From: Escherichia phage CF2
Sequence record: KY608966
DNA length: 53,242 nucleotides
Direction: 5' to 3' (one strand)
The notes under the pieces were generated by a model. That model saw only the letters and a list, made by a program, of their open reading frames with translations. It did no database searches and had not been told where the DNA came from. The first letter of the stretch is position 1. Every line of letters starts with the position of its first letter. The translations under genes were made by a program, and so were the position numbers. Positions 1-53,242 of the stretch are shown piece by piece.

Positions 1-306
1 AAAAAAATTTACGCCGGCGAAAAATAATAAAAAACCGGATTGATAAATAAATCTGTAGACGTTTACACGACCTTTATATAGATGTTATAATAACTATCTA
101 AAGTCCAGCAAAGGTATTGTAATGAATATACAACAGGAAGTACAAGCTGAATTTGATTATGTTGATGGCATGTTGTATCGTAAACATAGCCACGGTAACG
201 TCAAGCAAGGCGATAAATTTGGTACCGTAGTACCAGCAGGATACATTGAAGGCTTTTTCAAAAATAAGAAGACGTCTTTGCACGTTCTTGTCTGGCAATG
301 GCACAA
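1..306. repeat. Terminal direct repeat, left copy (same as 52937..53242)
   Basis: Bases 1-306 read identically at 52937-53242. The repeat covers a promoter and the first 185 nt of the HNH gene. Confidence 0.9.
62..91 (+). promoter_or_regulatory. sigma70-type promoter TTTACA-18-TATAAT (upstream of HNH gene)
   Basis: -35 TTTACA at 62-67 and -10 TATAAT at 86-91. A second copy lies at 52998-53027. Confidence 0.6.
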
Positions 307-622
307 TGGTGAAATACCGGAAGGTTATGTAGTAGACCACAAGGACCGCAATAAACTCAATTGTAAAATTGATAACTTACGCCTTGCTACAGCTAGCCAG
401 AATCAAGCTAATCGTGGGGTTAATTATAATAGTACAACAGGCGTCAAAGGTTTGCAGGTAACAACACAGCGTGGTTATACTTATTATGCTGCTAAGATAA
501 CTGTCAACGGTAAAAGATTGAGAAAAACCTTTAAATATACGGAAGAAGGCAAAGAATTAGCTATTGCCTGGCTTCAAGAACAACGTCAAAAATTACACGG
601 AGAATTTGCTTGTGATAACTAG
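122..622 (+). CDS. HNH homing endonuclease with AP2-like DNA-binding domain
   Basis: 166 aa. HNH core 'GYVVDHKDRNKLNCKIDNLRLATASQNQAN', then an AP2-like segment 'GVKGL..YYAAKITVNGKRLRKTFKYTEEGKELA'. Confidence 0.8.
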   Translation: MNIQQEVQAEFDYVDGMLYRKHSHGNVKQGDKFGTVVPAGYIEGFFKNKKTSLHVLVWQWHNGEIPEGYVVDHKDRNKLNCKIDNLRLATASQNQANRGVNYNSTTGVKGLQVTTQRGYTYYAAKITVNGKRLRKTFKYTEEGKELAIAWLQEQRQKLHGEFACDN

Positions 623-1052
623 AGCGTCAATTAGAGCGAAAGGACAGAACTTTGAGCGCAAAATGGCTAAGAAGTTCAATAGCTCGTTTGGATTAACTGT
701 TGAGCGCAATCTTCAACAGTCTATTAATGGCGGGGATGACTTGCTGGGTGTACCGTTTTTCAGTGTTGAACTGAAGAAGCACAATACTAAGTCTATCGGA
801 ACATGGTGGAGACAGTGTGCGGCATCGGCAAAGGCTCAGAACAAGATGCCAGTGCTTATATACGAACTACCAAGAAAACAGCCTACCGTGGTGATGAATA
901 AGGCTGATGTGATTGACTGTTTTCCAAGTGGCACGACTTTTAACGAGGCATCGAACCGCCTCTTTGTGGGTCTGGTAGAATTAACATGGGAACAATTTTG
1001 CCGGGTCTACAACTATTACGTTGCGCCCGGCACTCAATATCACGTCAATTAA
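612..1052 (+). CDS. PD-(D/E)XK nuclease, Holliday-junction-resolvase-like
   Basis: 'KGQNFER' and 'GGDD..FSVELKK' (D..ExK) motifs. The frame is open from 564. GTG 612 has GGAG 10 nt upstream, but the start is uncertain (ATG 663 is an alternative). Confidence 0.5.
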   Translation: MITRASIRAKGQNFERKMAKKFNSSFGLTVERNLQQSINGGDDLLGVPFFSVELKKHNTKSIGTWWRQCAASAKAQNKMPVLIYELPRKQPTVVMNKADVIDCFPSGTTFNEASNRLFVGLVELTWEQFCRVYNYYVAPGTQYHVN

Positions 1053-1234
1053 TCTTGTTTCAGCTCGTTACAAATAACACGCTGATTTTTGGCGGGGATA
1101 ATACCAAGATTCAGTAGGGTGTATGGACTATCAGCGACGCATTGTTCAACGGTAGTCCATTCAGGTTTGGATTCAACAATTTCGTAATTGCAGTCGTGAG
1201 TTGCTATACATGTTGCCAGGATTAAGCCAATCAC
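1049..1234 (-). CDS. Small putative lipoprotein or secreted protein
   Basis: 61 aa. GTG start with GGAG 7 nt upstream. N-terminus 'MIGLILATC' resembles a signal peptide with a lipobox. The start overlaps the upstream stop as GTGA. Confidence 0.45.
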   Translation of the reverse strand: MIGLILATCIATHDCNYEIVESKPEWTTVEQCVADSPYTLLNLGIIPAKNQRVICNELKQD

Positions 1235-1410
1235 AAGTAATCTCCATCAACCAGAAACTCAAACAATTGGTTGTAAACGTTGCAACCTTTAGCGAAAGAG
1301 CTTTCAGCAGGTTTACCGTCGCGGACAATCATCATATACTCACCGCCATGGATGTCCACCCAGTATTGCATGCCACCTTTGACCGGATTACGTTGCAGAA
1401 ATTTAAACAT
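1231..1410 (-). CDS. Hypothetical small protein (59 aa, below the ORF-track cutoff)
   Basis: Manual translation gives MFKFLQRNPVKGGMQYWVDIHGGEYMMIVRDGKPAESSFAKGCNVYNQLFEFLVDGDYL. AGGAG lies upstream, and TAATG and GTGA overlaps couple it to both neighbours. Confidence 0.45.
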   Translation of the reverse strand: MFKFLQRNPVKGGMQYWVDIHGGEYMMIVRDGKPAESSFAKGCNVYNQLFEFLVDGDYL

Positions 1411-1655
1411 TATTTACTCCTGACTCCAAGTTTATTCAATAGCCACACTGTCATGTCAACCCAGGTTAACGGTACAGTTTTCGGGGGTTGATAATCCCAG
1501 CAGCTTGCAGTTCTTTGTATTTCTGCTTGGCGCCGCTCCGCTTCGCGTAATACCGCATCGTCAGAAGTGCCGGCAGAAAAAAGATCGGTAACACCAGATA
1601 AATCGCGTTGATTAACACGTCGAGCAATGTCATATAAATCATCCTTAGAAAACAT
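1410..1655 (-). CDS. Hypothetical early protein
   Basis: 81-aa ORF in the leftward operon. Confidence 0.55.
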   Translation of the reverse strand: MFSKDDLYDIARRVNQRDLSGVTDLFSAGTSDDAVLREAERRQAEIQRTASCWDYQPPKTVPLTWVDMTVWLLNKLGVRSK

Positions 1656-1770
1656 AAGCCAATACCATAAGAATTATCAGAAAGATCCCAACCAGCTTCC
1701 TCATAGCCCGACCTTCAGCATATGCAGGATTCACAACAGAATACTCAACAACATGTTTACAGCGGACCAT
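1645..1770 (-). CDS. Hypothetical 41-aa membrane peptide
   Basis: Manual translation gives MVRCKHVVEYSVVNPAYAEGRAMRKLVGIFLIILMVLAYVF. GGAGG lies 5 nt upstream and the C-terminus is hydrophobic. Confidence 0.35.
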   Translation of the reverse strand: MVRCKHVVEYSVVNPAYAEGRAMRKLVGIFLIILMVLAYVF

Positions 1771-1789
1771 AAGGCCTCCACTTGTGGGT

Positions 1790-1834
1790 TAATTCAATCA
1801 TGAGGACTTTTGGCAAATCCTCATTGTTGAATCA
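1790..1834 (-). promoter_or_regulatory. Bipartite intercistronic RNA hairpin HP0 (candidate RNase III or RNA-stability site)
   Basis: Upper stem 1800-1806/1818-1824 (atgagga/tcctcat). Lower stem aattcaa/ttgaat, separated from the upper stem by 2x2 internal loops. Confidence 0.5.
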
Positions 1835-2032
1835 CTCAATCATTATCTGTACTACTATTATACACTCTTTATTGAAGCGGGTAAACACCTTTCCACCATT
1901 GGTGCGTTTAGCTCCGGACTTTAGAGCTGACTGGCACCAGACATGCCACTCCTCAACTGTCAAGAATTTTTGCTCAGCTTTGGGTGGTAGTCCATTGGCA
2001 AGGTCTACCGTAGTAAATTTGACTAGTGGCAT
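1832..2032 (-). CDS. Hypothetical early protein
   Basis: 66 aa. ATG 2032 overlaps the upstream TGA as TGATG. Confidence 0.5.
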   Translation of the reverse strand: MPLVKFTTVDLANGLPPKAEQKFLTVEEWHVWCQSALKSGAKRTNGGKVFTRFNKECIIVVQIMIE

Positions 2033-2421
2033 CACTTGACCTCAAATTTTGACTCGTCATATTCCGGATCAGTCACGTCCCGGGTCGCACAATTTTTGAT
2101 TGCATCCCAGTAACGTTGGGCATCATCGCCATCGACATAAACTGTCCAGTGGCCGTAACCACCTTCAAATCTGTCCCAGGCTTGTTCCCAGACTTTGCCA
2201 TCTTCCAGCTTGTACCAAGTTGGACGACTGTCAAACTCGCGGATTGGATGGTACCCCATCAAAGGATTCATCAGGTCAATAATGTCTTCCCGACTAATCT
2301 CCTGGTTCTCCCACAACACCGTCATGAATTGCTCAAACTTGAAGGCGTTTGGCAGAATTTTGATGACTTCACCATCACAATATACGGTATAGGTGCCATC
2401 TTCGCATTTTGCACTGTACAT
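2032..2421 (-). CDS. Hypothetical early protein
   Basis: 129 aa from ATG 2421, preceded by 'aggagagagaaac'. The longer track start lies inside hairpin HP1. Confidence 0.65.
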   Translation of the reverse strand: MYSAKCEDGTYTVYCDGEVIKILPNAFKFEQFMTVLWENQEISREDIIDLMNPLMGYHPIREFDSRPTWYKLEDGKVWEQAWDRFEGGYGHWTVYVDGDDAQRYWDAIKNCATRDVTDPEYDESKFEVK

Positions 2422-2438
2422 GTTTCTCTCTCCTATTG

Positions 2439-2495
2439 ATATAATTTCAATCATGAACTATCACAACTTTGGATAGTTCATTGTTGAAACTATAC
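2439..2495 (-). promoter_or_regulatory. Bipartite intercistronic RNA hairpin HP1
   Basis: Perfect 10-bp upper stem 2453-2462/2472-2481. Lower 10-bp stem 2441-2450/2484-2493 contains a G.U pair only in the minus sense. Confidence 0.6.
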
Positions 2496-2663
2496 TAACT
2501 TTGTTGCGATCTGAATTGTCAGCCGGAAGTCTTCCATCAAGTTATCAAACTCTTTGGAACCGCCAACCGCATCAGATATTTGGTCTTTCACAATTTGGGC
2601 ATTTGATTCCAGTAATTCAATCAGGTGCGCCAATTCGTCTTCAGTCAATTTCAGATCTTTCAT
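2490..2663 (-). CDS. Hypothetical small acidic early protein (paralogue of 2923..3081)
   Basis: 57 aa from ATG 2663, with an ATGA overlap. N-terminus 'MKDLKLTEDELAHLIELLE' resembles 'MLKIKLTKDQAMALRDMMIELE'. Confidence 0.55.
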   Translation of the reverse strand: MKDLKLTEDELAHLIELLESNAQIVKDQISDAVGGSKEFDNLMEDFRLTIQIATKLV

Positions 2664-2917
2664 AATGCATCCACCCAAGCCATAACTTTTGCCAGTCTTA
2701 CAACGTCTTCATGGTCCCGCTCGCCATCAGAAAATTCGCTGGCGATGATACCCATAATTGACGCCAGATTCATGTTGATGATGTAGGCGTGTTGGCGCAC
2801 TTCATCAATTCCTGAATCTATCACCAGTTCCGCAAATTCTTGTGAACCTTCATCCCATTCAGCCCAATACTGCTCAGCATAAAAGTCCAGTTCTTTTTTC
2901 ATCTCAATATCAGTCAT
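2660..2917 (-). CDS. Hypothetical acidic early protein
   Basis: 85 aa, rich in Asp and Glu. GAGGAG lies 8 nt upstream. Confidence 0.6.
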   Translation of the reverse strand: MTDIEMKKELDFYAEQYWAEWDEGSQEFAELVIDSGIDEVRQHAYIINMNLASIMGIIASEFSDGERDHEDVVRLAKVMAWVDAL

Positions 2918-2922
2918 TTTGA

Positions 2923-3081
2923 TTACTCCTCAGAACCTGAAAATTTGTCGTCAATGGCTTCAACAATATAATCAAGAGTTGAAGTGTGAGAACTATCAGA
3001 AAAAGTGCCCATCTTCTCTAACTCAATCATCATATCCCGCAAGGCCATCGCCTGGTCTTTGGTCAGTTTGATTTTAAGCAT
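2923..3081 (-). CDS. Hypothetical small acidic early protein
   Basis: 52 aa from ATG 3081, preceded by 'caggagagaaac'. Confidence 0.5.
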   Translation of the reverse strand: MLKIKLTKDQAMALRDMMIELEKMGTFSDSSHTSTLDYIVEAIDDKFSGSEE

Positions 3082-3101
3082 GTTTCTCTCCTGTTGATTG
3101 T

Positions 3102-3151
3102 GAATAATTTCAATTGATGGCACTACTTGAGTGCCATCTCAAAAATTACTC
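3102..3151 (-). promoter_or_regulatory. Bipartite intercistronic RNA hairpin HP2
   Basis: Upper stem 3116-3123/3131-3138 (gatggcac/gtgccatc). Lower stem 3102-3110/3143-3151. Confidence 0.55.
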
Positions 3152-3718
3152 TTCAGTAGTTTCTTGTTCTTCAATTTCAGGTTTTTCTTCAGCTTCAGGT
3201 TTTTTGCCTGTTACTGATTTGCCGTCAGTCACTTTACCAGATTTTACATCATTACGGTAGTATGACATATATGACTGGATAACACGTTTTGCTCTAATAT
3301 CATCCGCTTCCATTCCGCAAGCTTTCATCGCATCAGCGAGTGCCAATTTGGAATCTTCTTTATCCATCAAGTTGTAATCTTTGAACACCAGATAGCAAGT
3401 ATCTTTAGTTGATGGACCAGATGACGATTTGCGAGAGCCACCAGCAGATGCTCGTGTTGTCGCAACTTTGACTTCTTCAACTTCCAGTTGGTTCAGCTCG
3501 TCAAACAAAGCCTTCACCAGCACTTCTTTAGAGTCTTTGACACTTACAGAACTTTCATCATTAAGCGACTTAATCATCTTAATGATCTGGTTATTGGCAA
3601 AGTACTGAAGACTATCCATCTGCACTACAATAGTGCCAAGACTTTCAGTAGTCAGACCAGATTTCACAGACTCGACAGAAAAAGCGGAAGTCAGGTAAAC
3701 GTAGTTGATAGTTGTCAT
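3146..3718 (-). CDS. Hypothetical early protein with acidic C-terminal tail
   Basis: 190-aa ORF with a Ser/Gly linker and an 'EEKPEIEEQETTEE' tail. Confidence 0.7.
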   Translation of the reverse strand: MTTINYVYLTSAFSVESVKSGLTTESLGTIVVQMDSLQYFANNQIIKMIKSLNDESSVSVKDSKEVLVKALFDELNQLEVEEVKVATTRASAGGSRKSSSGPSTKDTCYLVFKDYNLMDKEDSKLALADAMKACGMEADDIRAKRVIQSYMSYYRNDVKSGKVTDGKSVTGKKPEAEEKPEIEEQETTEE

Positions 3719-3766
3719 TTGATGTATCCTCGTTGATAGAATTTTTGATAGGTGTCAATCCTTGAC

Positions 3767-3820
3767 AAGTAATTCCAATCATGACAACTTTTATCAAGTT
3801 GTCATTGTTGGAAATTACTT
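3767..3820 (-). promoter_or_regulatory. Bipartite intercistronic RNA hairpin HP3
   Basis: Perfect 10-bp upper stem 3781-3790/3796-3805. Lower 12-bp stem 3767-3778/3808-3820 has one bulge. Confidence 0.6.
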
Positions 3821-4117
3821 CGCGCTTGCGTTTTCAACAGCTTGTACGACTTTCAACAAATGCCTGAAGTCATCATGATAAACTTCATTAAAGCCATCTG
3901 CCGCAAAGTTTTCGCCAATTAAGATCAGTCTTTCGCGGACCAAGTCAATCAAGAGTTTATTGTCAGTTATTTCAGCACCTGTAATAAGTTCAACAAATAA
4001 TTGCTGTACGTTATCATAACAGATGTTGCTTTCAATACACACTTGGCGCATGTCTTCAACTATTGACATGATTGTGACTTGCATTTCTACGTCAGAAGTG
4101 ATGTTATTCAGTTTCAT
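3815..4117 (-). CDS. Hypothetical acidic early protein (first gene of leftward operon)
   Basis: 100-aa ORF. Confidence 0.65.
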   Translation of the reverse strand: MKLNNITSDVEMQVTIMSIVEDMRQVCIESNICYDNVQQLFVELITGAEITDNKLLIDLVRERLILIGENFAADGFNEVYHDDFRHLLKVVQAVENASAK

Positions 4118-4131
4118 AATAGTTACCTTTG

Positions 4132-4186
4132 TATTAGTTTCCAGGCGTGACTACTGATACCAATAGTCACTGGTTGAAACTATTAC
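4132..4186 (-). promoter_or_regulatory. Bipartite RNA hairpin HP4 in the leader of the leftward operon
   Basis: Upper stem 4147-4153/4164-4170. Lower stem tattagtttcc/tgaaactatta. Confidence 0.55.
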
Positions 4187-4333
4187 TAGTGTTACTATCA
4201 ACAAGAAACATGTTACCAAATTGTTAAAGAGCGGTCTGGTACTATTCGACCAGGTAAAGTTATTATTTGCGCATCTTGACGACACGCGCCAGACAAGACG
4301 CTTGACACATTCATCATTCGTCTTGATGTAATA

Positions 4334-4362
4334 ATTATAGGCCAGTCAATCAATGTTGTACA
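4334..4362 (-). promoter_or_regulatory. Candidate leftward early promoter TGTACA-17-TATAAT
   Basis: The minus strand reads TGTACA (4357-4362), a 17-nt spacer, then TATAAT (4334-4339). Confidence 0.45.
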
Positions 4363-4476
4363 TAAAAGAATTGCAAGTTTATGCAAGTTTTTAGAAATGA
4401 TAATCACTTGCGATTGAGAGTGGTTCTCGTATGCAATTGATATAGTTTCACATGTAATTACTCAATCCAAAATGGT

Positions 4477-4530
4477 CGGCAGGGGTTATAATCACATAGG
4501 GGTGCCACTTAAAGGAGCCGGCGAAATTAT
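4477..4530. repeat. Imperfect direct repeat A1 (about 55 nt)
   Basis: 'cggcagggg..aggggtgccac..aggagccggcgaaatt' aligns with A2. The GCCGGCGAAA core also occurs at 14-23. Confidence 0.6.
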
Positions 4531-4538
4531 TTCTAAAA

Positions 4539-4562
4539 ATATAATTTCAATCTGAATTATAG
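4539..4562 (-). promoter_or_regulatory. Minimal hairpin HP5 (lower-stem consensus only)
   Basis: ataatttca-atc-tgaattat. It has the same flank consensus as HP0-HP4 but no upper stem. Confidence 0.35.
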
Positions 4563-4653
4563 ACGCTTTGTGTTATAACGGCCGAAGTAGTTCATACGGT
4601 AATTGTATCAATCGCAATAGTTACCAGGGTAATCGTTTCAATCGAAATAGGTG

Positions 4654-4716
4654 CGGCGGGGGGTAATTTCGCAGGGGTGCTACCTGCCAGGAGCCAGCGG
4701 AATTTTTTTATTTTTT
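4654..4716. repeat. Imperfect direct repeat A2, ending in a T-run
   Basis: 'cggcgggggg..aggggtgctac..aggagccagcggaattttttt'. It contains the hairpin gcagg-ggtgcta-cctgc. Confidence 0.6.
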
Positions 4717-4937
4717 GGTATTTTCTCCTTATCAGGACCAATCATCATCAGAGTAACACGGCAGGAGCTAACCTTTTGCTTATCACAATAATAAGTGAAG
4801 CCCCTCTAAAATTTTTTTATATTTTTCGGAAATTGTGTAGACACTCACTAAAAAGTGGTGTACTTTCTCTCCTCCACGCGCTATCATTAATGTGAATCAT
4901 CAAACGGCCTCACGGTCTCCTACTTGTGGGTAACATT

Positions 4938-5423
4938 ATGAAAATTGTTCAATTAGAGCCATATCCGCCTCAATTGGCTATCGTTTGCAGCGAAAAAGAG
5001 CACGAAGAGCTCCAAAAACTGATGGATTTGCCTGATTTTGGCAACTGGAATGACCGGGAAACACGTAATGCATCTACCTTTACATTCTCTCGCGTTAACT
5101 ATCCGTACCTGTTAATCGTCGTCGAACTGTACCACCCGGACGACCTGAAGTACAACACCATTTCCCACGAAGGCATTCACGTAATGTCATCGCTGATGAA
5201 CTATGTAGGGCTTAAATACGACCCAGAAAACGATGAATGGTACGCATATCAGCATGATTTCATCGTAAATGCCATTTGTAAGGCCCATGACGAGTATATA
5301 GAGCGCCAAAAAACGCCAAAAACTAAGCCAAAAATCGAAACAGGTAACCATCCTGCTATACTGCCACAAGACGTAATGAACTCGCTTTTGACTGACACTA
5401 CTGGGGACTTTTTAGGTGATTAA
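4938..5423 (+). CDS. HExxH-motif protein (putative small Zn-metallopeptidase-like)
   Basis: 'SHEGIHV' motif. ATG 4938 is the likely start, although the frame is open from GTG 4926. This is the first gene of the rightward operon. Confidence 0.6.
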   Translation: MKIVQLEPYPPQLAIVCSEKEHEELQKLMDLPDFGNWNDRETRNASTFTFSRVNYPYLLIVVELYHPDDLKYNTISHEGIHVMSSLMNYVGLKYDPENDEWYAYQHDFIVNAICKAHDEYIERQKTPKTKPKIETGNHPAILPQDVMNSLLTDTTGDFLGD

Positions 5424-6090
5424 TATAATCTTCGCAATGGGCCAAAATGGGGAATTCGGGTTGTCCCCGGAGTTTATGAAGCATCAGGTTGACTCGTGTA
5501 AGACCATGGAAGAGGTCCGTGCGCTTCCTAAATCGGGTCTACCCTGGAAATGTCCGTCAGACATGCTCTTTTTCAGGACTATGACTAATTCAGTTGCGAC
5601 AGAACCAGGCTATAATGCATATCAGCAACTACGTGGACAGTTCCCAAATGACCAGTTGCGAAACATGATAGCAGATGTAACGGTAAAAATGGTAGGGCAT
5701 AGTGTATTGTTAGCCGGTCGTAACACGTATATGACTATGAGTCTGCCTATGTCAGCCCACAGAATACTGCTGCCGGTATCTCGCCAGATTATGGCTTCAG
5801 AAGGCTACAATAATTTGGGTGAGATGGCAGCAGACCTTGAATCCAGAGGTACTGACGTCTGGATTGTAGGTGGTGCCGAATTGATACTTTCGGCCCTTGA
5901 AGAGCATGCAAAAGACTTACTCCGTATCGACAACATGTTTATCAGTACAATCAAGCAATCAGGTCCAAGTGATATTTTAATGGATCGTAGCAAATTAATG
6001 ATGTACATTGATAGCGACTTCACATATAATGATGAATATGTTGATAACAAACAAGTTCTGATACAACGGTATAGGAGTTTACACAAATGA
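5416..6090 (+). CDS. Dihydrofolate-reductase-like protein with insertions
   Basis: 'MINIIFAM', 'LPWKCPSDMLFFRTMT', 'LLAGRNTY' and 'VWIVGGAEL' parallel FolA 'MISLIAAL', 'MPWNLPADLAWFKRNT', 'VIMGRHTW' and 'MVIGGGRV'. Confidence 0.65.
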   Translation: MINIIFAMGQNGEFGLSPEFMKHQVDSCKTMEEVRALPKSGLPWKCPSDMLFFRTMTNSVATEPGYNAYQQLRGQFPNDQLRNMIADVTVKMVGHSVLLAGRNTYMTMSLPMSAHRILLPVSRQIMASEGYNNLGEMAADLESRGTDVWIVGGAELILSALEEHAKDLLRIDNMFISTIKQSGPSDILMDRSKLMMYIDSDFTYNDEYVDNKQVLIQRYRSLHK

Positions 6091-6593
6091 ACATCATAAT
6101 CGAGGGTCCCGATAATGCAGGAAAAAGTACACTTATTGAGTTCCTTAAATCTCGTACTGGCCGCAATGTTATTCATAATACTGTTGATAAGGACCCCGAA
6201 TCGGTCATGGCTAAACAGGCCAAAGAAAACGCGTTGGAAGGCGATTGCATTTATGATCGTAGCGCTGTTATATCTGAGTATATCTATTGCCTGGTTCTTC
6301 AACGTACGCCTGTCATCAATATTAATGTATCACATGTAGCAGATATGTGCGACAACGCCATCGTTATCTTTTGTATGCCGCCTGTTGAAAAGGTACTGGC
6401 AACTACAAAAGACGAAATGCCTGGTGTTGTGGAAAATCTTGAGGCGTTATACAATCAGTATGACAACCTCATTGACGAGCTGGTTATGATGAGTAAGCAG
6501 TTCTTCATCTATGACTGGACTGTTGAAGAAGACGGTCCTGAAGCAGTTCTAGAATACATCAACGAACGTATTAATAAGGAGTGGAACAAATGA
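6087..6593 (+). CDS. P-loop dNMP kinase (thymidylate-kinase-like)
   Basis: Walker A 'IEGPDNAGKST' and Tmk-like 'YDRSAVISEY'. Coupled to the upstream gene by an ATGA overlap. Confidence 0.7.
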   Translation: MNIIIEGPDNAGKSTLIEFLKSRTGRNVIHNTVDKDPESVMAKQAKENALEGDCIYDRSAVISEYIYCLVLQRTPVININVSHVADMCDNAIVIFCMPPVEKVLATTKDEMPGVVENLEALYNQYDNLIDELVMMSKQFFIYDWTVEEDGPEAVLEYINERINKEWNK

Positions 6594-7309
6594 GCCCAGT
6601 ATACAATAGCACAATTACACTGTCAGCAACCGTAGGAGACGTCAACAAGACTGTTACTGTGGGTTCAACTAACCCGAACCTGTCAGGCGAAGACCTGCTG
6701 CGCCTGGCCAAACGTGCTCTTGAAGATAACGAAGTGACTGGTACTGAAGGCGTCAGCATCGAAATTAACGTCGAAGGATGTCCGCACAGCATCAGTATTG
6801 CTACCTCTTCATTGCCGGATGATGAAACTCGTGAACAGCTGGAGACAGACAAGTTCAACGACGAGCTGGAATATCGCACTGGTGAGATGTTCAGCAATGC
6901 GTTAAACTGGTATCTGTGCAAAGCTTCAGGCTACACCGGTGCTCCTATGTCAGACCGTATGTTAGCTGATATGTCAGCACGTGAAATTGCTAAAGGCTGG
7001 GCGCATGTACAGATGCTACAGGAGCGTATCTGCAAACTGGAAAGCTGCAATAAAGATGCGTCTGAGCTTATTACTGCCTATAAGCGACAGATTAACGACC
7101 TGCAGCAACTAATGGGCAAACGCGCTGAAGAATATGAGGCTGAGATTCGTAGCCTTAACGGTACAGCTGTTGCTAACAACCGTGCTTTCAGCGAAGAGCG
7201 TAAAGCGCTTATCGCCCAGCGTGACGCTGAAAAACGTCGTGCAGACGACCTGGCAGACCGTCTCAACTTTATCCGTAAGCATATGGATGCTATGGAAGGG
7301 GTAATCTGA
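6590..7309 (+). CDS. Hypothetical protein with C-terminal coiled coil
   Basis: 239 aa from ATG 6590, with AAGGAG 8 nt upstream and an ATGA overlap. Confidence 0.6.
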   Translation: MSPVYNSTITLSATVGDVNKTVTVGSTNPNLSGEDLLRLAKRALEDNEVTGTEGVSIEINVEGCPHSISIATSSLPDDETREQLETDKFNDELEYRTGEMFSNALNWYLCKASGYTGAPMSDRMLADMSAREIAKGWAHVQMLQERICKLESCNKDASELITAYKRQINDLQQLMGKRAEEYEAEIRSLNGTAVANNRAFSEERKALIAQRDAEKRRADDLADRLNFIRKHMDAMEGVI

Positions 7310-52936: not shown

Positions 52937-53242
52937 AAAAAAAAATTTACGCCGGCGAAAAATAATAAAAAACCGGATTGATAAATAAATCTGTAGACGT
53001 TTACACGACCTTTATATAGATGTTATAATAACTATCTAAAGTCCAGCAAAGGTATTGTAATGAATATACAACAGGAAGTACAAGCTGAATTTGATTATGT
53101 TGATGGCATGTTGTATCGTAAACATAGCCACGGTAACGTCAAGCAAGGCGATAAATTTGGTACCGTAGTACCAGCAGGATACATTGAAGGCTTTTTCAAA
53201 AATAAGAAGACGTCTTTGCACGTTCTTGTCTGGCAATGGCAC
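52937..53242. repeat. Terminal direct repeat, right copy
   Basis: Identical to 1-306. The window ends inside the duplicated HNH ORF. Confidence 0.9.

Follow-up and report, generated by a model that had tools for sequence, protein, structure and literature searches.

The early transcript of phage T7 carries a family of hairpins, one located in the leader and the rest between cistrons, at which cleavage is proven and by which RNase III divides the early message. Sites in the early mRNA of the Bacillus phage SP82, reportedly described by Panganiban and Whiteley in 1983, are said to be cut by Bs-RNase III. In bacterial operons, hairpins between cistrons are also known as stabilisers, such as the REP elements of malEFG and the hairpin of the puf operon. 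T4-type phages possess another kind of junction, the PeSL, in which a stop codon, a promoter and a stem-loop are followed by a Shine-Dalgarno sequence (SD) and a start codon, and which is found at the boundaries of insertions and deletions (PMC2839356, PMC4122927); a strong sigma-70 promoter is its defining feature, and its G/C-rich stem-loop acts as a terminator (PMC2839356). Here we describe five hairpins, HP0 to HP4, in the DNA of Escherichia phage CF2 (KY608966), a stretch of 53,242 nucleotides (nt) which was analysed at its full length and is called the window below, and which represents a Rosemountvirus genome in full, that of a virulent, BP63-like myovirus infecting Salmonella and E. 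coli. The hairpins lie at the junctions of small leftward genes and constitute a new, undescribed RNA structural family that is confined to Rosemountvirus, Loughboroughvirus and their relatives.

A family of two-tier hairpins

All five elements are found on the minus strand, at the coordinates where an earlier note, made from the letters alone, had placed them, and folding of this strand as RNA gives z scores of -5.7 to -8.5, with none of 200 shuffles reaching the native stability for any of the five. HP0 (1790-1834) follows a gene of 66 amino acids (aa), has an upper helix of 10 base pairs (bp) and holds the TGA stop codon (1834-1832) within its lower stem (-20.6 kcal/mol, z -5.7). HP1 (2439-2495), located after a 57-aa gene, combines an upper helix of 10 bp with a lower helix of 12 bp, in which two G.U pairs and the TAG stop codon (2492-2490) are included (-25.8 kcal/mol, z -8.5). 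HP2 (3102-3151) follows a 190-aa gene; a 3x4 internal loop, UGA/AAUU, separates its upper helix of 9 bp from the lower one, which spans 10 bp and contains the TAA stop codon 3148-3146 (-22.5 kcal/mol, z -6.4), while HP3 (3767-3820), after a 100-aa gene, has a 2x2 loop and the lower stem TTCCAA/TTGGAA containing the TAA stop codon 3817-3815 (-25.7 kcal/mol, z -6.1). HP4 (4132-4186) is the copy in the 5' leader, ahead of the first gene, and consists of a 10-bp upper helix, a 5x5 loop and a lower helix of 7+3 bp; its outer stem, from about 4200 to 4117, pairs with the SD/AUG region of the first gene, and with this stem included the fold reaches -31 kcal/mol (z -6.0). These five are also the strongest short-range inverted repeats that a repeat finder detects in the first 8 kb.

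HP0-HP4 have in common that 9-10 bp are paired above the internal loop and 10-12 bp below it, the lower helix being bulged in places. The upper-stem sequences quoted in the earlier note are correct, and most of them reach 9-10 bp once G.U pairs are counted. The CA...GA architecture that it ascribed to the whole set holds for HP0, HP1 and HP3, and not for HP2 and HP4, whose loops are 3x4 and 5x5. In the same way, the overlap with stop codons is true of HP0 to HP3, each having the stop inside the lower stem, and fails for HP4, which stands in the leader, is preceded by TAATAG alone with no convincing upstream gene, and lies downstream of a sigma-70-like promoter (4362-4334). An AU-rich spacer and an SD come directly after the hairpins, and the start codon follows 14-20 nt past the hairpin, or 48 nt in the case of HP3. 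The SD lies just outside the lower stem and is predicted to be mostly unpaired at HP1, HP2 and HP3 (probability unpaired 0.57-0.68). Stable stem-loops at intergenic positions could be taken for intrinsic terminators or attenuators between early genes; however, no U-tract comes after any hairpin, the 3' flanks being AUUAUAUC, AUUAUUCA and the like, a terminator scan finds none at the five sites, and the stems are AU-rich and interrupted, which leaves this as the least probable of the readings discussed here. Mini-ORFs (open reading frames) inside the hairpins were considered as well, and rejected.

Pairing is conserved in homologous phages, as was seen by comparing the operons of S144 and SE4 (Loughboroughvirus, about 75% identity), of KE26, KM, Erwinia phage SOI901 and fHy-Eco03, of the close relatives JEP7, SE13 and yarpen, and of four metagenomic contigs found via the 190-aa protein. 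Since MAFFT alignments of the hairpins misaligned the variable stems, a first covariance model was seeded from three gap-free copies and then iterated, and a second one (R2) was built from 24 sense-strand hits in ten genomes. In the alignment of these 24 hits, standard pairs make up 96.9% of cells, a share that drops to 27-49% if the 3' partner is displaced by 1-3 columns, and eight of 17 pairs change on both sides; compensatory variation in the stems had been read by the earlier note. The covariation score of 0.496, against 0.148 for shuffled alignments and reached in none of 500 shuffles, is not to be read as a probability, because the sequences are related. Individual hairpins tell the same: the HP2 upper stem is GATGGCAC/GTGCCATC in the window and GACCTCT/AGAGGTC in the S144 orthologue, wholly different and still complementary, and the hairpin before the 190-aa gene has ATGCGGTA/TACCGCAT in KM and AAGTCCTTGC/GTGAGGACTT in SOI901. 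At the leader hairpin, four pairs differ on both sides among seven phages; RNAalifold recovers only the two inner tiers there, since the two sequence types cannot be aligned over the outer SD-pairing stem.

A descriptor scan of 14 genomes collected 32 distinct sense-strand two-tier hairpins with a 2x2 loop, which is CA/GA in 29 and CA/AA in three. Their upper arms come in 18 sequences and their lower arms in six (TTCAA, TCCAA, ATTAA, TTTTA, CTTAA and GTTAA), each of the latter paired with its own complement, around the invariant core A-CA-R...Y-GA-U. The length of the upper helix is 8, 9, 10, 11 and 12 bp in 1, 7, 15, 7 and 2 cases, respectively, so that 29 of the 32 fall within 9-11 bp. Altered loops occur in yarpen and JEP7 (TC/GA, TC/GC or CA/TT), in which a 1x1 mismatch is kept at the same level. 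In these two phages, the 5' strand of the loop has gone from CA to TC more than once, in separate hairpins at the HP0, HP1 and HP3 positions, and the arms become more perfectly complementary by this change, suggesting gene conversion between copies or between the arms of the palindrome.

The pairing is also specific to one strand. HP0-HP4 each fold more stably as mRNA than as the complement. Among 34 family members, 29 are more stable in the mRNA sense, with a mean difference of -4.0 kcal/mol, and there are 54 G.U pairs in this sense versus 27 on the complement, a comparison that carries a slight bias as the intervals were picked on the sense strand; the asymmetry claimed in the earlier note is thus upheld. 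Given this strand-specific folding and G.U bias, it is the RNA, or at any rate this one strand, that carries the selected structure, rather than duplex DNA. The imperfect palindromes with ATTTCAA and TTGAAAT halves had also been proposed as operators, and action at the DNA level, either through palindromic operators or stoperator-like repressor sites or through folded sites like the attC sites of integrons, is highly unlikely on several counts. In relatives five other complementary pairs take the place of these half-sites, so that the proposed operator is not supported, and the spacing is variable; the sense strand folds better; neither a repressor nor an integrase is annotated in a related genome; and TTTCAATC, the core of a supposed sixth copy treated below, shows no enrichment, with 3 occurrences in the genome where 2.0 are expected. 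Stoperator or operator sites were rejected on finding that six different lower-stem sequences pair equally well, with no single conserved DNA sequence.

The family is narrowly distributed. The first covariance model matches only HP0, HP3, HP1 and HP4 across the 53-kb window, and R2, with filters off, returns the same four sites only, at 66.7 bits for HP0, 69.3 for HP3, 59.5 for HP1 and 28.7 for HP4 (E 1.7e-4). HP2 is detected by neither model and is a diverged member of the family. R2 has no match over 46 kb of the related phage KE24 outside the operon, nor over the early region of T7 (400-7000), and among 915 kb of unrelated viral contigs that had been chosen for carrying the flank motifs, the only scores above 26.4 bits come from two contigs, which are SE13 and ZCSE2 themselves; this negative control consists of loci from two IMG/VR scans with exact or gapped DNA patterns, whose listed matches were near-exclusively chance ones in AT-rich contigs and did not help to find relatives. 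Rfam at gathering thresholds gives no match over the whole window, and over 1000-5000 it gives two matches at chance level (E 0.33 and 0.42), neither on a hairpin. Generic hairpin scans are too permissive to define the family, a two-tier descriptor returning 49 sites genome-wide and an energy filter 115 on the minus strand. The parts of the literature on this phage group that were checked for hairpin terms do not mention the motif.

Comparison with RNase III sites

The idealised substrate for RNase III from E. coli is a helix of about 22 bp with twofold symmetry about the cleavage sites (PMC3867540), with a distal box some 11 bp from the cut; loops, bulges or mismatches restrict cleavage to one strand, leaving a protective 3' hairpin (PMC3867540, PMC1540722). 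A signal of the T7 type would have two coaxial helices that total about two turns (20-22 bp) and a central internal loop or mismatch. The copies in the window have helices of 9-10 and 10-12 bp on either side of an internal loop, which is 2x2 in HP0, HP1 and HP3, 3x4 in HP2 and 5x5 in HP4. This geometry, two helical turns interrupted at the dyad, fits an RNase III substrate. In layout, one copy stands in the leader and four between gene groups.

For comparison, the five early sites of T7 (R0.3, R0.5, R1, R1.1 and R1.3) were folded at coordinates which we take to be those of Dunn and Studier (1983). In each, a defect divides an upper from a lower helix, and the cuts, as they are reportedly placed, are all 3' of the defect. 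In R0.3, R0.5, R1 and R1.1 the upper helix measures 9-10 bp; that of R1.3 is longer, at about 13 bp, and its defect consists of one mismatched pair. In three of the five sites the defect is an ACUC/UAUGA internal loop. R1.1 reads UAUGAUUGA (...UAU^GAUUGA...) where the present hairpins read UCAUGAUUGA, and the 8-mer AUGAUUGA on the 3' strand is common to R1.1 and the CA/GA hairpins. Both phages have a family of related hairpins, with one member in the leader and the others at cistron boundaries of a transcript that host polymerase makes early in T7 and is predicted to make here, and in both the upper helix, of about 10 bp, is set off from the lower one by a defect. On the other hand, there is no detectable homology between the two, the loop is mostly 2x2 (CA/GA) here and about 4x5 in T7, stop codons lie within the lower stem here, and the phage here is a 53-kb myovirus that, to judge from an annotated relative, lacks an RNA polymerase; moreover, cleavage is proven in T7, whereas here it is read from predicted structure. 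SP82 offers a further likeness, a small conserved hairpin family segmenting the early polycistronic transcript of a large virulent phage, although host, enzyme specificity and sequence differ.

The reading that we favour, tentatively and at somewhat less than an even chance, is that the hairpins would serve for T7-like processing by RNase III and for 3' stabilisation of the operon mRNA. Host RNA polymerase would transcribe a polycistronic mRNA leftward from about 4330, and host RNase III would bind the two-turn helix and cut at or beside the defect, mainly on the 3' side. In the annotation of KE24 (46 kb) there is no phage RNA polymerase or ribonuclease, and host enzymes would therefore have to act. 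The upstream message would retain the upper hairpin as a 3' block to exonucleases, and the downstream message would receive a short, unstructured AU-rich leader (GAUUGAAAUUAU...AGGAG) with a strong SD. At HP4, the cut might in addition free the ribosome-binding site of the first gene from the outer stem, which is present in both sequence types, as UGAUAGU...ACUAUUA in the window and as CUCUGUG...CACAGGAG in KE26-like phages. The predicted accessibility of the SD is 0.40 for the first gene and 0.48-0.68 for the others, and as this difference is small, unmasking by RNase III stays speculative. The net effect would be an operon cut into independently stable and translatable units, in the manner of the T7 early region.

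The earlier note had put T7-like RNase III sites first among its interpretations, and geometry, selection on the sense strand, covariation and position all speak for it. A number of points weigh on the other side. The case for cleavage, and for the transcript itself, is drawn from structure and analogy, and the literature on the genus yielded no transcriptome for this phage group; early timing and location in a terminal repeat are likewise extrapolated from a single relative, fHy-Eco03. R2 finds no match in the T7 early region, so that homology between the family and the T7 sites is lacking. In yarpen the internal loop is reduced to 1x1. The usual 2x2 loop, itself smaller than the 4x5 loop of T7, might allow double-strand cuts that would remove the protective hairpin. 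Furthermore, the third pair from the loop is G-C in 28 of 31 cases in the upper helix and C-G in 21 of 31 in the lower helix, and G-C or C-G at position 2 of the proximal box strongly inhibits binding by E. coli RNase III (PMC1540722). The conserved third G-C would be an antideterminant if the cut were at UCAU^GA, and would fall outside the box if it were at GA^UU, two nt further 3'. In vivo, double-cleavage sites of E. coli favour two paired, G/C-containing positions between the cuts (PMC6212723), and the hairpins have no such positions. Stop codons inside the lower stems imply that terminating ribosomes would melt the structure, a feature that the T7 sites do not have. Finally, the conservation of the loop sequence hints at a sequence-specific reader other than RNase III.

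This last point leads to the possibility that the core A-CA-R...Y-GA-U is the site of a sequence-specific RNA-binding protein, either a phage ORFan or a host protein, comparable to RegA or RegB of T4 or to endonucleases of the Csy4 type, which would bind or cut there and so repress, activate or process the early messages. In its favour, loop sequence and closing pairs stay invariant while both helices vary, the family is limited to one operon, and the operon proteins are all of unknown function. Nevertheless we consider it unlikely, for viable phages, yarpen and JEP7, carry TC/GA, TC/GC or CA/TT loops, the loops of HP2 and HP4 differ, and no RNA-binding or nuclease domain appears in the operon proteins that were tested or among those annotated in the related genome.

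It is also conceivable that the hairpins are left uncut and have a passive role, forming a barrier to 3'-to-5' exonucleases, similar to REP and puf, once the message has been cut elsewhere, while also tying up the 3' end of each upstream coding region in a hairpin and so keeping it from pairing with the following ribosome-binding site, such that translation of each cassette becomes independent of context. The hairpins are indeed stable and sense-specific, the SD outside the lower stem is predicted to be mostly unpaired at the three junctions named above, and hairpins are found between gene groups only, with none between overlapping genes; insulation would also explain how unrelated ORFs that have been swapped in are expressed. 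As with REP and puf, stable hairpins stand between the cistrons of one operon and can set the stabilities of segments, but those stabilisers have no conserved internal loop, no ruler for helix length and no member in a leader. A passive role does not need a conserved loop sequence or an upper helix of 10 +/- 1 bp, an uninterrupted stem would be more stable, and HP4 in the 5' leader has nothing upstream to protect, so that this role appears rather improbable, if less so than the other rivals of processing. Processing by RNase III, in turn, is a reasonable but unproven interpretation.

Cassette exchange at the junctions

The small leftward genes run over 1049-4117. Genes with no intervening hairpin are overlapping or tightly packed, and since hairpins are found only between non-overlapping gene groups, they split the operon into five such groups, all on the minus strand. 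The first cassette (3815-4117) is a 100-aa ORFan with no match in PHROGs or Pfam, for which relatives swap in unrelated genes from start to stop codon. The second (3146-3718) encodes the 190-aa protein, of unknown function, assigned to phrog_9997, a narrow family of 25 clusters at a threshold of at least 55% identity and too narrow to extend the analysis past this phage group. Three small genes of 52, 85 and 57 aa, tightly packed or overlapping and with no internal hairpin, form the third cassette (2490-3081), the overlapping 129-aa and 66-aa genes the fourth (1832-2421), and four small genes, including the 81-aa ORF 1410-1655, the fifth (1049-1770).

When the window is compared with JEP7 and SE13 (88-93% identity in the aligned pieces), all six internal breakpoints of homology fall in hairpin junctions, at 3821/4114, 1834/1824 and 3819/4115. 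Across the aligned phages, three unrelated genes occupy the interval between HP4 and HP3. Homology spans HP4, the SD and the ATG, stops right after the start codon, and resumes at the stop codon in HP3, the first gene thus being replaced in relatives exactly from ATG to stop, while about 100 nt around HP4 are nearly invariant between Rosemountvirus and Loughboroughvirus. Insertion is seen in SE13, S144 and SE4, where the 5' edge of HP0 has received an additional gene together with an additional hairpin of the ATTAA-CA...GA-TTAAT type; for SE13, 11 nt of the 5' arm (1824-1834 of the window) belong to the alignment on either side of the insert. Transposition is seen in KE26, KM, SOI901 and fHy-Eco03, in which the 190-aa gene together with an HP2-type hairpin has moved to another position in the operon. 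JEP7, moreover, has a chimeric hairpin with the lower stem of HP3 and an upper stem like that of HP0. These alignments show that replacement, insertion and transposition of gene cassettes among related phages have taken place at the junctions of stop codon, hairpin and SD, a point which goes beyond the earlier note, as does the probable placement of the operon in a terminal repeat. The junctions may promote recombination, or they may just be the places that tolerate it.

In this respect the junctions resemble the PeSLs of T4-type phages, which also repeat the order of stop codon, stem-loop and SD/start, are concentrated among ORFans, and coincide with the boundaries of insertion, deletion and replacement between close relatives. 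The difference lies in the signals, as the hairpins have no consistent promoter and no features of a terminator, and PeSLs do not have the conserved two-tier geometry seen here. A search for a PeSL-type promoter at the five hairpins gave no consistent -35/-10 pair, only weak 9/12 matches at HP3 and HP4, that of HP4 ending on the start codon. In S144 (MT663719), annotated 'promoter' features at 2479-2497 and 4113-4153 coincide with family hairpins, and these are probably artefacts of promoter-prediction software.

The hairpins could be mainly recombination joints, short conserved sequences that, possibly as extruded DNA hairpins, would favour the exchange of cassettes when phages co-infect or between one terminal repeat and the other, with a secondary role for the RNA, as a promoter-less analogue of the PeSL. 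The coincidence of breakpoints with junctions, the alignment of 11 nt of 5' arm on both sides of the SE13 insert, the chimeric hairpin of JEP7 and the precedent of the PeSL (PMC2839356) are all in its favour. Recombination, however, calls for identity of sequence and not for pairing within a molecule, and compensatory changes, the G.U bias of the sense strand and the fixed helix length are left unexplained; in addition, intergenic positions are possibly the only places where rearrangements survive. We regard such a primary role as very unlikely. A combined scheme, in which the CA/GA hairpin would be the address label of a private phage system, an ORFan of the operon would be its sequence-specific, Csy4-like hairpin endonuclease or binding protein and would process and time the messages of host takeover, and the junctions would actively drive the capture of cassettes in the terminal repeat as an RNA-punctuated counterpart of integron arrays that has no integrase, is judged improbable too.

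The array of ORFs and hairpins does bear a superficial resemblance to an integron cassette array. Like attC sites, the hairpins are imperfect palindromes 3' of promoter-less cassettes, in which the outer stem is conserved, the spacer unpaired and the apex variable, and their 5' arm TTTCAAC agrees at six of seven positions with the attC inverse core, which we take to be RYYYAAC. Nonetheless, attC sites fold on the bottom strand, and here the sense strand folds better; exchange boundaries lie outside the 3' arm, and in homology that runs from hairpin through SD to ATG there is no crossover point inside that arm. Neither an integron integrase nor a tyrosine recombinase is annotated in 46 kb of KE24, an observation from the annotation only, with no dedicated search. 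The attC model was rejected on this conservation from hairpin to ATG, with divergence beginning only after the start codon.

Operon, control region and implications

A control region at 4190-4925 feeds the small leftward genes as well as a rightward operon. A candidate sigma-70 promoter for the leftward operon is located at 4334-4362 on the minus strand (TGTACA-17-TATAAT, 10/12 consensus matches), with a similar sequence in S144. A candidate internal promoter lies within the 66-aa gene just upstream of HP0 (1857-1885, minus strand; TTTACC-17-TG-n-TATAAT, with an extended -10), its sequence being conserved in S144, and if it is active, HP0 would be a leader hairpin as well. The unusually long 48-nt spacer between HP3 and the 190-aa gene (minus strand, 3741-3768) contains CTTGTCAAGGATTGACA, which is identical in four of five aligned phages, yarpen differing by a single base on either side. 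A small hairpin is present there, along with a weak match to a promoter (TTGTCA-16-AAAAAT).

The operon proteins that were tested yielded no function, and no RNA-binding or nuclease domain, in PHROGs and Pfam searches. In fHy-Eco03, the homologous operon sits within an annotated terminal repeat of 3.7 kb; the terminal repeat of that phage is described as having 11 predicted genes, and toxicity to E. coli has been shown for its Gp05 (PMC8145870). Window 639-1758 is the part that aligns with the region of gp05, and it holds the 81-aa ORF 1410-1655 (minus strand); this ORF has no PHROG or Pfam match, and its stretch aligns at 78% with the region carrying gp05. From this one relative it may be concluded that the leftward operon of small ORFan proteins is probably an early host-takeover operon, and that it is probably located in the terminal repeat, in the 1-4700 region, the alignment with fHy-Eco03 placing the inner end of the repeat near 4700.

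The control region is also where the earlier note had seen a sixth, minimal copy (4539-4562, minus strand). This element folds at -1.7 kcal/mol (z +0.47), is matched by no model and forms no hairpin, and is thus not a family member, although it shares the 12-mer GATTGAAATTAT with HP1. Its core TTTCAATC belongs instead to a set of iteron-like repeats at 4400-4720, which further includes a 30-nt tandem pair (4583-4612 and 4613-4642), two motif pairs (CGGCAGGGGTTA and AGGAGCCGGCGAAATTATTT) about 176 nt apart, and TCAATCG(C/A)AA sites in both orientations. No significant RNA fold is predicted on either strand of 4400-4720, and the region could be an origin, a packaging site or a signal for the repeat boundary.

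As for the genome as a whole, phage rivia is 96% identical to the window over 92% of its first 8 kb, and 61 phage records match. Positions 1-300 and 52939-53238 are 100% identical over at least 300 nt, at a spacing of 52,938, from which a circular or permuted assembly of 52,938 bp with an overlap of about 300-304 nt follows; this end overlap of about 300 nt is a feature of the assembly and is separate from the biological terminal repeat. Near the left end, window 69-629 contains a gene for an HNH_3 endonuclease (ORF 122-622, plus strand; Pfam E 2.8e-20). This 560-bp segment is missing from rivia, JEP7, SE13 and yarpen, whose alignments cover 1-68 and then continue from 630, and it is probably a homing-endonuclease insertion just upstream of a PDDEXK/RusA-like gene.

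Taken as a family, the hairpins are best classed with intercistronic processing or stability signals, and they evolve in a PeSL-like way. For annotators, the covariance model or the motif A-CA-R...Y-GA-U can serve as a marker of cassette boundaries in a 53-kb myovirus group that is widely isolated for the biocontrol of Salmonella and E. coli. The junction would, if the interpretation is true, also be a compact natural insulator of stop codon, hairpin and ribosome-binding site, with a ruler of 10 + 10 bp, for use in synthetic operons. Should the hairpins be sites of processing by RNase III or otherwise, the cutting of the early message known from T7 would extend to unrelated 53-kb myoviruses, and, whatever the mechanism, the junctions explain how ORFans of host takeover are exchanged with the precision of a single ORF.

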